Shown one piece after another: positions 10,882-12,951 of a DNA stretch of 32,000 nucleotides. Source of the DNA: Candidatus Harpocratesius repetitus (GTDB lineage: Archaea; Asgardarchaeota; Lokiarchaeia; Sigyniarchaeales; Promethearchaeaceae). Each line of letters starts with the position of its first letter. Position 1 is the stretch's first letter. The stretch is taken from contig JAIZWK010000001.1 in assembly GCA_021498095.1 (NCBI GenBank), forward strand, positions 2,550,001-2,582,000, written 5' to 3'. The notes beneath the pieces are model-generated. The model worked only from the letters and a program-made list of their open reading frames with translations, searched no databases and was not told the DNA's origin. The translations under genes and the position numbers were made by a program.

Positions 10882-12207
10882 TTAGATAAAATCTCTTAAA
10901 CTATGAAACCTAATGTCTTTTTTTCCAAATTTCAAATAATATGCCTTATCCAATTTTGACCTTTTCAGGTAATTGGCATATTCCAACAAATTAAAATAAT
11001 TGCTTGATATCAATCTTTCCTTCAGAAATTTGTAAAGTTTCCCGGAAGTTTGACTTTTCTTAATCTGTTCCAATTCAGCATTTTGTACGTAGATATTATG
11101 GATTGCCCTGTGTTTTCTTCCCAGAGTACCATCCTCCTCAAATTTTTTTTGTAATTGTTGATAACGAACAGTCATATCATTACTTAAAGTGGAATCAGAG
11201 CAAATAGGGCATTTACATTTTAATAATTCATCAATTTCATTTTTAATAAACATTCTACCATTTCGTTTGTATTTTCGGTGATTTTGTAGATATGGGCGAT
11301 TATGTGCTTTTTTACGCATAAATCTATCAGAAATTCCTGGAAGCTGTATAACTCCATAACCACTTTTCTGAATCCAGCCGTTAGAATCGATAGAGTCAAT
11401 TCCACAATAAAACGCTAAATATTGCATGGTTCCTCCAATTCCAAATGCATGGATAAAAGTATTTGGTAAACGGTGCCGTAAATATAATAAATTGTCAATA
11501 AATGTCCATTTTCCCCCAATTTTATTTGTTCCTTTAATTGATTTAACCATAGGAACAAGACTTCCAATACCCAAAAGTGGAATTCTACTAAATCTTTCTG
11601 CCAATTGTTTTATACCGTGTTCTAGCATTTTTGGAGAATGACCATGAATAACTGGCATAATCGTCGCACTTGCCGAACTATCTTTAATTAAATCAAAAAG
11701 ACGAATATAATTTTCAAAAGATTGTTTATTACATTGAAATTTTTCGAGTTTCGTTAAATTAGGTGATAGTGGCACATCCAACTGGACCATTATATCAGGA
11801 TTATAACTTTCTTGAATTTTAAAAACCAAATCTTGGTTGAATCTTGCTGGAAGTTTTTTGCCTGAAATATTTGCTTTCATTAATTGAAAGCCACCACTGT
11901 CCATCTTGTGCAGCAAACCTTTTCCAACCAATGCTTCAATTATTCCTTTCCTTTTCTGTTTCTTATCTTGAAATTGCAGATCGAAAGCATTTGAGAGAAA
12001 AGCTTTAACACCCGCCTTTTCAAAAACTTCCAAATGGAATTCTTTATCTTCAATAACAGATAATCCGTACCAAACAAATGGACCTTCAATTTTTTTATGA
12101 TTCTTCAAAGTAAGAGTGTGAAAATCGATATTTTTTGAAAAATCAAGATTCTGGAAATATGCACCAAGTTTCTCCTCAATTTTCGGAGTATTATATAATA
12201 TTGTCAT
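10882..12207 (-). CDS. tRNA-guanine transglycosylase (TGT)-fold protein lacking C2/PUA domains; DpdA-like candidate
   Basis: MDSGGFQ, QLDVP, PVIHG, GIGSLVP, HAFGIG, SIDS (catalytic Asp positions) and the CKCPIC...HN zinc site. The protein ends ~55 aa after the zinc His. Confidence 0.85.
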   Translation of the reverse strand: MTILYNTPKIEEKLGAYFQNLDFSKNIDFHTLTLKNHKKIEGPFVWYGLSVIEDKEFHLEVFEKAGVKAFLSNAFDLQFQDKKQKRKGIIEALVGKGLLHKMDSGGFQLMKANISGKKLPARFNQDLVFKIQESYNPDIMVQLDVPLSPNLTKLEKFQCNKQSFENYIRLFDLIKDSSASATIMPVIHGHSPKMLEHGIKQLAERFSRIPLLGIGSLVPMVKSIKGTNKIGGKWTFIDNLLYLRHRLPNTFIHAFGIGGTMQYLAFYCGIDSIDSNGWIQKSGYGVIQLPGISDRFMRKKAHNRPYLQNHRKYKRNGRMFIKNEIDELLKCKCPICSDSTLSNDMTVRYQQLQKKFEEDGTLGRKHRAIHNIYVQNAELEQIKKSQTSGKLYKFLKERLISSNYFNLLEYANYLKRSKLDKAYYLKFGKKDIRFHSLRDFI

Positions 12208-12213
12208 TACTTT

Positions 12214-12951
12214 TCATTCTCCTGGAGCAATTATTTCGTGAATTTTTTTTTCAGGTCCTGAAAAATGATACAGCACTTCCAAGCTGCCATCTAAAAGTTT
12301 TATAATGTTCTTTTTATAGTCAAAAATACCGTTCTTTGAAGCCATTCGATAAACCGGCACCATCTTTAAGTCTTCCAGCGCAGGCTTCAAGGCTTCCACA
12401 TAAATATTTCCCATTATCATGATGATGGCCTTTTTATTTTTAAGATATTGCTCCAATTTGGGTAAAATCTTTTTTTGGATGGCGCGAGCATCCGCTTTAG
12501 TCTTCAGTTGTTTATCGTAAGGCTCCAAAATCTCGTCCGGCTCCACTAATCCGTATTTGGCACTTACGATGAGTTCATTAAATTTATGTTGGGTTACCCA
12601 AATATGTGCTTTTTTAAAGACATCTCCCTGATAAAGTTCGGAAGCTGGGGCGGGATGGTTGAGTTTCTTTTTAGTGCAAGAGAGGATAACGAGTATTTCA
12701 TCATTTTTTATGGGTGTTTCAATCCCAAGATATTTATCTAAAGGTGCAAACCGTTTTATCTTAGATTTGGATTTTATTAAAAAGGAATCTAACCGAAGGT
12801 AGGATGATTCGGTACGTTTACGTCTGGGTCTGGGTCTAGGTCTGGATTTGGATTTGTTTTTGTGATTTAATTTGTGATACTGCCCATTATTTCTAACCAA
12901 ATTTGGAACGAACCGGCAGAGACCCATTTGAGCATTTATTGATAAATTCAT
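12214..12951 (-). CDS. DUF6884/YaaA-like Rossmannoid protein with basic low-complexity N-terminal extension
   Basis: ILSCTKKK...PASELYQG..FKKA...IVSAKYGLV.PD..LEPYD..L...MG..Y; 6 nt from the TGT start codon. Confidence 0.75.
   Translation of the reverse strand: MNLSINAQMGLCRFVPNLVRNNGQYHKLNHKNKSKSRPRPRPRRKRTESSYLRLDSFLIKSKSKIKRFAPLDKYLGIETPIKNDEILVILSCTKKKLNHPAPASELYQGDVFKKAHIWVTQHKFNELIVSAKYGLVEPDEILEPYDKQLKTKADARAIQKKILPKLEQYLKNKKAIIMIMGNIYVEALKPALEDLKMVPVYRMASKNGIFDYKKNIIKLLDGSLEVLYHFSGPEKKIHEIIAPGE

Follow-up and report, generated by a model that had tools for sequence, protein, structure and literature searches.

The genome of Candidatus Harpocratesius repetitus, an Asgard archaeon of the Lokiarchaeia, encodes a protein with the core of a tRNA-guanine transglycosylase (TGT) next to a DUF6884 protein, and this locus raises the question of which nucleic acid the pair modifies: tRNA, as the canonical archaeosine TGT (arcTGT) does, or DNA, as DpdA-type paralogues do. 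We examined the pair in a window of 32,000 nucleotides (positions 2,550,001 to 2,582,000 of contig JAIZWK010000001.1), the source genome being one 4.36-Mb contig (C1 in the coordinates below). An initial annotation, made from the letters of the window alone, had described an archaeal-type TGT core without tRNA-binding domains coupled to DUF6884. We found that the pair is real and probably functional as a DpdA-like modification pair, for which we infer DNA as the target. We consider it likely that the two genes make up the modification half of an undescribed Dpd-like defence cassette of restriction-modification (R-M) type with NurA and HerA, in which DNA would be the substrate.

The TGT domain PF01702 (60 bits) was the sole Pfam domain of the 441-aa protein, and neither the Pfam scan nor the AlphaFold2 (AF2) model contained a C1, C2 or PUA domain. 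The model, with a predicted local distance difference test score (pLDDT) of 90.7, consisted of a single TGT barrel followed by C-terminal helices, and TGT structures from bacteria and from archaea fitted it equally well (Z 31.9 and rmsd 2.9, with ~330 residues aligned). By sequence, the arcTGT of P. horikoshii (PDB 1iq8, 6e-10) was the only solved structure found, and the score against the archaeosine-TGT equivalog TIGR00432 of NCBIfam (64.6 bits) stayed below its cut-off of 350. The catalytic, pocket and zinc residues aligned with those of P. horikoshii arcTGT (HMMER). In particular, D103-S-G-G, L143-D144, G215/V218/P219 (of GSLVP), D274, C331, C333 and H370 were invariant in a 48-member family alignment, and C336 was kept in at least 90% of its members. 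Among these, D103 and D274 are the catalytic residues, D144 the substrate aspartate, G215-S-L-V-P219 the pocket and C331/C333/C336/H370 the zinc site; D274 occupies the aligned position of the nucleophile aspartate in both P. horikoshii arcTGT and E. coli Tgt. The initial annotation was thus borne out where it had reported intact catalytic aspartates, an intact zinc site, an arcTGT-like pocket and the absence of C2 and PUA. Judged by these residues, the protein is catalytically competent and would be a working base-exchange transglycosylase.

Of the 392 relatives that an exhaustive search recovered at E<=1e-3, almost all in the top 150 were 340-420 aa long. In maximum-likelihood (ML) trees the canonical Asgard arcTGTs formed a clade of their own (support 100/99), and the branch that splits the arcTGTs and E. 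coli Tgt from all core-only proteins was supported at 100/97. Constraining the family and arcTGT to one clade cost 64 log-likelihood (lnL) units, a marginal rejection in the approximately unbiased (AU) test (p=0.041). Phylogeny, the check that had been proposed for the annotation, therefore placed the window TGT outside the bona fide arcTGT clade. The DpdA of virus STSV2 was sister to an Asgard paralogue (100/100), and phage 9g DpdA1 and the TGT of a Methanofastidiosa virus (vir519) fell on the core-only side, on long branches. The DNA of both STSV2 and phage 9g carries 7-deazaguanines (bioRxiv 10.1101/2023.04.13.536721; PMC5699537). The 9g DpdA1 gene was picked by its annotation; a PF01702 or phrog_1279 search of the phage 9g, CAjan, nt-1 and HGTV-1 records for DpdA gave no match, and the plasmid matches to 9g DpdA were unannotated phage-plasmid genes. 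The window protein groups with viral DpdAs and is not close to bacterial DpdA, for which PADLOC gave no match and from which the kept N-terminal lid sets it apart. We also observed that the zinc site CxCxxC...H is gone in STSV2 DpdA (L013:2875-3750), in 9g DpdA1 (L021:3007-3960) and in the Asgard paralogue nearest to STSV2 (L067:9716-10843); the rest of the clade keeps it.

The basic insert of ~30 aa that had been noticed before the zinc site proved real and enlarged, since the distance from the nucleophile aspartate to the first zinc cysteine exceeds that of canonical arcTGTs: it measures 56 residues for the window protein. The close family shows 52-56 and the wider core-only clade 40-56, against which 20 canonical Asgard arcTGTs have 29-30 and E. 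coli Tgt has 37. About half of the insert, the LPG hairpin (G.IQLPG..DRF), occurs throughout the core-only clade and, in looser form, in STSV2 DpdA (GMVLLPGKGERYV); the basic second half (HNRPY...KRNGR) is confined to the close family. The insertion was modelled as a four-stranded beta meander (pLDDT ~90-95). The tryptophan after the nucleophile is also found in 9g DpdA1 and vir519, and STSV2 has a tyrosine there.

The genome holds three matches to the TGT family: a canonical arcTGT of 541 aa that scores 247 bits against PF01702, ArcS (796 aa, with DUF5591, TGT_C2 and PUA) and the window gene. A queC-queD operon lies at C1:3174506-3175649, ~610 kb from the pair. Given this canonical arcTGT, ArcS and queC-queD, the window TGT is not the archaeosine enzyme of the cell. 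A separate tgtA, which the initial annotation had suggested looking for, is therefore present, and the window gene is not the only TGT of the genome. As had been noted, the FolE and QueC/D/E families were absent from the window open reading frames (ORFs) scanned, and the distant queC-queD operon agrees with the proposal that the host pathway would supply the substrate. The host arcTGT (L001:895-2520; C1 ~633.4-635.1 kb) showed the TGT domain and a weak DUF5591/C1 match, and its C2 and PUA domains were not detectable with Pfam. Canonical arcTGT was present in 59 of 61 sampled Asgard genomes, carriers of the paralogue included. The core-only paralogue itself was patchy: it occurred in ~35 of 400 Asgard genomes, in neither of two of the same genus and in one of 13 of the same family. 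These paralogue counts are our own reading of a match table of short open frames, with scores above ~130 bits.

The DUF6884 gene lies upstream of the TGT-like gene on the same strand, with a gap of 6 nt. Its 245-aa product matched PF21818 (DUF6884) at E 2.6e-25 and, more weakly, YaaA (Pfam). The best PADLOC match was PDC-M57A (7e-22), and a DpdC match (E 2.4e-5) was partial and weak, covering 60 of 312 model positions. Residues 1-85 form a basic tail modelled with low confidence (KSKSRPRPRPRRKR), the folded domain spans ~81-243 (pLDDT >90 in the AF2 model), and the database gene call begins at M9 (237 aa). The protein carries the motifs C92-x3-K96 and S130-A-K-Y-G134, of which C92, K96, S130 and G134 are invariant in 14-15 relatives. 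A PDB search by sequence, with the single sequence or a profile, gave no match. The top structural matches of the model tied at Z 8.5, namely YaaA (5caj) and AF0587 (2q07), and the next stood at 6.8. The DUF328/DUF6884 fold with a conserved CxxxK that characterises DpdC was therefore found here (PF21818, C92/K96, 5caj), and dpdC has been reported as a member of the Pfam family DUF6884.

AF0587 is a DUF5591 protein and matches the DUF5591 profile at 1.1e-21. A profile-profile alignment of DUF6884 with DUF5591 had an E-value of 7.8e-4, but a probability of 25%; it paired SCTKKK with PCAxxKPY, ISAKYGLV with ISEPxGxVP, and PYD with YD. DUF6884/YaaA-like proteins and the ArcS core (e.g. L004:11534-12112, 2q07) share C-x3-K, IS-x-x-x-G-x-V-P, YD and the fold. 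We find moderate support for treating DUF6884 and DUF5591 as one superfamily whose Cys-x3-Lys centre would act on the preQ0 nitrile. DpdC converts dPreQ0 to dADG independently of DpdA/B (PMC10164549), and the common fold and C-x3-K of DUF6884/DpdC and the ArcS core suggest one mechanism serving two preQ0-nitrile reactions.

All seven loci of the close family and of the relatives nearest to it had an adjacent DUF6884 or DUF5591 partner, as did ~10 that are more distant. Partners of the DUF6884 type occurred in the window and in L004, L007, L016 and L052, and a stand-alone DUF5591 gene with the ArcS signature PC-x3-KPY-x2-S occurred in L004, L005, L015, L096 and ~7 more distant loci. In the coupling of the TGT to DUF6884 that the initial annotation had named, DUF6884 is one of two interchangeable partners, the other being DUF5591/ArcS2-like. 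NurA, HerA and one or two P-loop proteins of ~1400 aa lay beside the pair in the window, L004, L005, L015, L096 and L097, loci whose TGTs are 34-61% identical; in L004, L015 and L096, on unrelated contigs, they formed tight, co-oriented operons with it. In L016 (G276:C5, 9273-21065) the DUF6884-TGT pair had four N6/N4 DNA methylase genes on one side and a cluster of BrxL, PglZ and BrxC-like genes on the other. This locus could represent a form of BREX that has a deazaguanine mark. The pair was found beside a DEAD helicase and a P-loop protein in L007 and was flanked by McrBC in L005. A 468-aa relative of the TGT paralogue (L095:7379-9407) directly followed QueC, beside a caspase-like peptidase C14 gene. 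A further 79 neighbour ORFs were enriched in DNA methylases, UvrD, PD-(D/E)XK, AIPR and AAA families. Finally, one Asgard family (L060-L064, L071) had a distant core-only TGT subfamily with Glu for the nucleophile Asp (GADSIES), in 10 of 12 genomes; an adjacent DUF5591 gene of ~193 aa and a conserved, housekeeping-looking context accompanied it. This subfamily may have a different, non-defence role.

These observations are consistent with a route of three steps. The TGT-like enzyme, which has lost all tRNA-docking domains and has acquired a larger, basic insertion next to its zinc site, would take preQ0 from the host queC/queD pathway and exchange it for guanine in double-stranded DNA. The Cys-x3-Lys centre of the DUF6884 protein would then act on the inserted preQ0 nitrile, as DpdC does in making dADG; in the sister cassettes a DUF5591/ArcS2-like protein that shares this fold and motif would act in its place, giving dG+ or a related base. 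Going by gene linkage, the 339-aa protein, the 1388-aa P-loop ATPase, NurA and HerA would sense and degrade unmarked DNA. More tentatively, and with slightly less than even confidence, we propose an undescribed R-M-type immunity in Asgard and many other archaea, in which the core-only TGT marks the cell's own chromosome, a DpdC-like or ArcS-C1-like enzyme tailors the base and a giant P-loop sensor guides NurA-HerA against unmarked DNA; it would provide the first 7-deazaguanine DNA mark in cellular archaea. Such marks have so far been known from bacteria (Dpd) and viruses. If the proposal is true, 7-deazaguanine chemistry reaches the chromosomes of cellular archaea, including Asgard relatives of eukaryotes. 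The modification module would be pluggable into different effectors (NurA-HerA, BREX-like, helicase-based), and the archaeal end-resection pair NurA-HerA would have a role in immunity.

Table 1. Features of the locus, in window coordinates.
Feature	Position	Strand	Size or extent	Remarks
TGT-like gene (core-only TGT paralogue, DpdA-like)	10882-12207	-	441 aa	
DUF6884 (YaaA/DpdC-like) gene	12214-12951	-	245 aa	
Beta8/alpha8 insertion of the TGT-like protein, before the zinc site	11239-11361	-	codons 283-323	
MITE-like repeat	10475-10708	unassigned		inverted partial copy at 14252-14428
339-aa protein	9442-10461	-	339 aa	first gene of the downstream block; no family assigned
1388-aa P-loop protein	5273-9439	-	1388 aa	nSTAND5/AAA-like N-terminal domain; Pfam nSTAND_NTPase5 3.8e-7, AAA 4.6e-6
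NurA nuclease paralogue	4087-5253	-		PF09376 1.9e-12
HerA-type ATPase/translocase	2504-4090	-		PF01935 7.3e-36
McrC C-terminal fragment	13343-13789	+	148-aa ORF	PF10117 2.7e-6

The gap of 420 nt between the TGT gene and the downstream block is filled by a repeat of ~230 nt that resembles a miniature inverted-repeat transposable element (MITE), with arms of 123 nt that are 94% complementary. Its two inverted copies in the window bracket the segment with the TGT gene, the DUF6884 gene and the McrC fragment, and further copies (halves) lie on either side of a ~2-kb insertion, at C1:3430067 and C1:3432216, in the manner of insertion sequence (IS) ends. The G+C content is 33-36% in the pair vs 22-26% in the next 6 kb. 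The 339-aa protein had no match in Pfam, PADLOC, NCBIfam or PHROG; language-model leads to a FokI-recognition (0.87) and a DpdG-like cluster (0.84) were weak, and we dropped both identities since the scores lay below 0.9 and the HMMs were silent. That it is a remnant or fragment of a second giant protein was rejected. The 1388-aa protein occupies the place of the ~1400-aa proteins of related cassettes; PADLOC gave DpdH at 0.017, and a PDB sequence search returned nothing meaningful. The genome has a second NurA (C1:1403946), and the window HerA is 26% identical to the HerA beside the TGT paralogue in L005. The McrC fragment corresponds to the C-terminal third of McrC and is 43% identical to the C-terminus of the full-length McrC of L005. 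Because a full McrBC pair flanks the TGT paralogue there, the fragment looks like the remnant of a decayed McrBC system. Elsewhere in the window we observed an 858-aa KAP/AAA_16 P-loop protein of defence type with a weak Mrr-like region and a winged helix-turn-helix (22395-24971, minus strand), and a 417-aa DUF2400 protein, above the usual size of its family and listed with the defence-type genes (899-2152, plus strand).

Several results weigh against a dedicated DNA-modifying cassette. The AF2 model keeps the N-terminal beta lid, whose strands 31-33, 39-41 and 44-48 align with the TGT lid, so the structural likeness to tRNA TGT is as great as that to DpdA. Bacterial DpdA was not among the structure matches listed (Foldseek, VIA), a list with hundreds of Z. 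mobilis TGT entries that does not imply its true rank. No PADLOC model matched the 441-aa protein at E<=0.1, and none of the NCBIfam DpdA models did. The DpdA sampling of the tree was viral, without bacterial DpdA (bDpdA) and DpdA2-4. The window ORFs scanned contained no member of the DpdB or ParB-like (DndB-like) family. DUF6884 is frequent in phages and plasmids without any TGT, and its protein is for that reason not a dedicated DpdC. The linkage of the pair with NurA and HerA in the window may be secondary, because the MITE-like repeat lies between them and the G+C content differs. Orthology of the 1388-aa protein with the giants of the other cassettes was dropped, as the Walker B region alone aligns (probability 57%).

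We therefore weighed other roles for the pair. The core-only TGT, with substrate binding provided by its DUF6884 or DUF5591 partner, could introduce preQ0 into tRNA or some other RNA at a second position and process it there, in effect as an archaeosine machinery that is split or alternative. Among characterised sequences arcTGT is the best match (1iq8 and TIGR00432), which speaks for such an RNA-modifying paralogue, and so does a fold that, lid included, agrees with tRNA TGTs at Z ~32. ArcS has DUF5591 as its catalytic core, archaea with stand-alone C1 genes are known (bioRxiv 10.1101/2023.04.13.536721), and the distant subfamily of the one Asgard family stands in a housekeeping-looking context. 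We nevertheless judge this role unlikely, given that the genome already holds a full arcTGT and ArcS, that the close family is patchy and found in defence-type neighbourhoods, that the window TGT groups with viral DNA transglycosylases and not with arcTGT, and that every known tRNA-docking domain is missing.

Alternatively, the pair could be cargo of a mobile element, marking the DNA of the element or host against restriction in a phage-like, anti-restriction manner, and not the self-marking arm of NurA-HerA. The bracketing repeats, which also take in the McrC remnant, and the G+C content of the pair, unlike that of the downstream block, would suit such cargo. Viral DpdAs likewise act in anti-restriction, and 130 phage records contain DUF6884, which also lies among the methylases of an archaeal plasmid. 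We saw no virus or plasmid hallmark genes in the window, however, and the recurrence of the pairing with NurA, HerA and giant ATPases in the operons of L004, L015 and L096 makes the idea quite unlikely.

That the transglycosylase is itself an effector, excising guanine from invader DNA or becoming covalently trapped on it, so that NurA-HerA receives DNA already damaged, while the cell's own DNA stays unmarked, is highly improbable: a preprint indicates defence by DNA glycosylases, PDB entries 1q2r and 7nq4 indicate that TGTs form a covalent enzyme-nucleic acid intermediate and the window is without DpdB and preQ0 genes, but the conserved preQ0-type pocket, the constant presence of a nitrile-processing partner and the relative that adjoins QueC argue that a 7-deazaguanine base is really inserted.

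We found no published description of a cassette with NurA-HerA, TGT and DUF6884. The nearest is BRC (BREX-related capture, NAR 2026, PMC12839542), which combines HerA/FtsK with PglZ, DUF6079 (BrxC-like), DUF4007 and often GNAT, and whose TGT homologue was proposed to mark DNA with 7-deazaguanine in archaea and bacteria; according to that paper it has no DpdC homologue, and NurA, DUF5591 and Asgard are absent from its text (PMC12839542). The window resembles BRC in joining a HerA/FtsK translocase and a P-loop NTPase to a TGT homologue. It differs in having NurA and a DpdC-like partner (ArcS2-like in the sister cassettes) and in being without PglZ, DUF6079/BrxC and DUF4007. With HerA but without those three families, the locus falls outside BRC as defined, and the giant protein matches generic P-loop models only. 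The paper on DndFGH/HerA capture mentions neither TGT nor NurA. With TgtA of P. horikoshii (1iq8) the window protein shares the barrel, the catalytic Asp pair, the G-x-V-P pocket and the CxCxxC...H zinc site; it is without C1, C2 and PUA, belongs to a separate clade and has a pre-zinc insertion larger by ~26 residues.

The bacterial Dpd system of Salmonella Montevideo consists of DpdA/DpdB/DpdC for modification and DpdD-K for restriction (PMC10164549, PMC5699537). The window shares with it a TGT paralogue that has no PUA domain, keeps a zinc site and resembles arcTGT in its catalytic and pocket residues, a partner of DUF328/DUF6884 type, linkage within a mobile island to genes for an ATPase, a helicase and a nuclease, and preQ0 from the queuosine/archaeosine pathway. 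However, the zinc spacing is Cx33H in the window protein vs Cx22H, the putative restriction genes comprise NurA, HerA and a giant P-loop protein instead of DpdD-K, the host is an Asgard archaeon, and the DpdC-model matches in the window are weak and partial, with none in PADLOC for the TGT. Bacterial DpdA needs the ATPase DpdB (PMC10164549), and the hallmarks of bDpdA are a missing N-terminal beta lid and an Ins8 with a four-helix bundle (PMC10164549), whereas the window model has the lid and its Ins8 enlargement is a beta meander.

Finally, viral DpdA with a DUF5591-only ArcS2 makes dG+ in DNA, and such pairs occur in the Sulfolobus viruses STSV1/2 and, as DpdA2 and ArcS2, in Vibrio phage nt-1 (bioRxiv 10.1101/2023.04.13.536721). 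STSV2 DpdA is the nearest viral sequence to the window protein (23% identity, 3e-7) and belongs to the same clade, and the gene after it encodes a stand-alone DUF5591 protein, an arrangement that the sister Asgard cassettes also have. The viral proteins differ in their length of ~290-320 aa, the loss of the zinc site and their service in the anti-restriction of viral DNA, whereas the window pair is chromosomal and its partner is DUF6884, not DUF5591. In the broad sense of DpdA, a PUA-less TGT paralogue beside a tRNA enzyme with arcTGT-like residues (PMC5699537), the window protein has all these features; it groups with the DpdAs of 7-deazaguanine viruses and not with tRNA TGTs (9g and vir519 on long branches), and it is linked to a preQ0-processing enzyme and to DNA-metabolism and defence genes.

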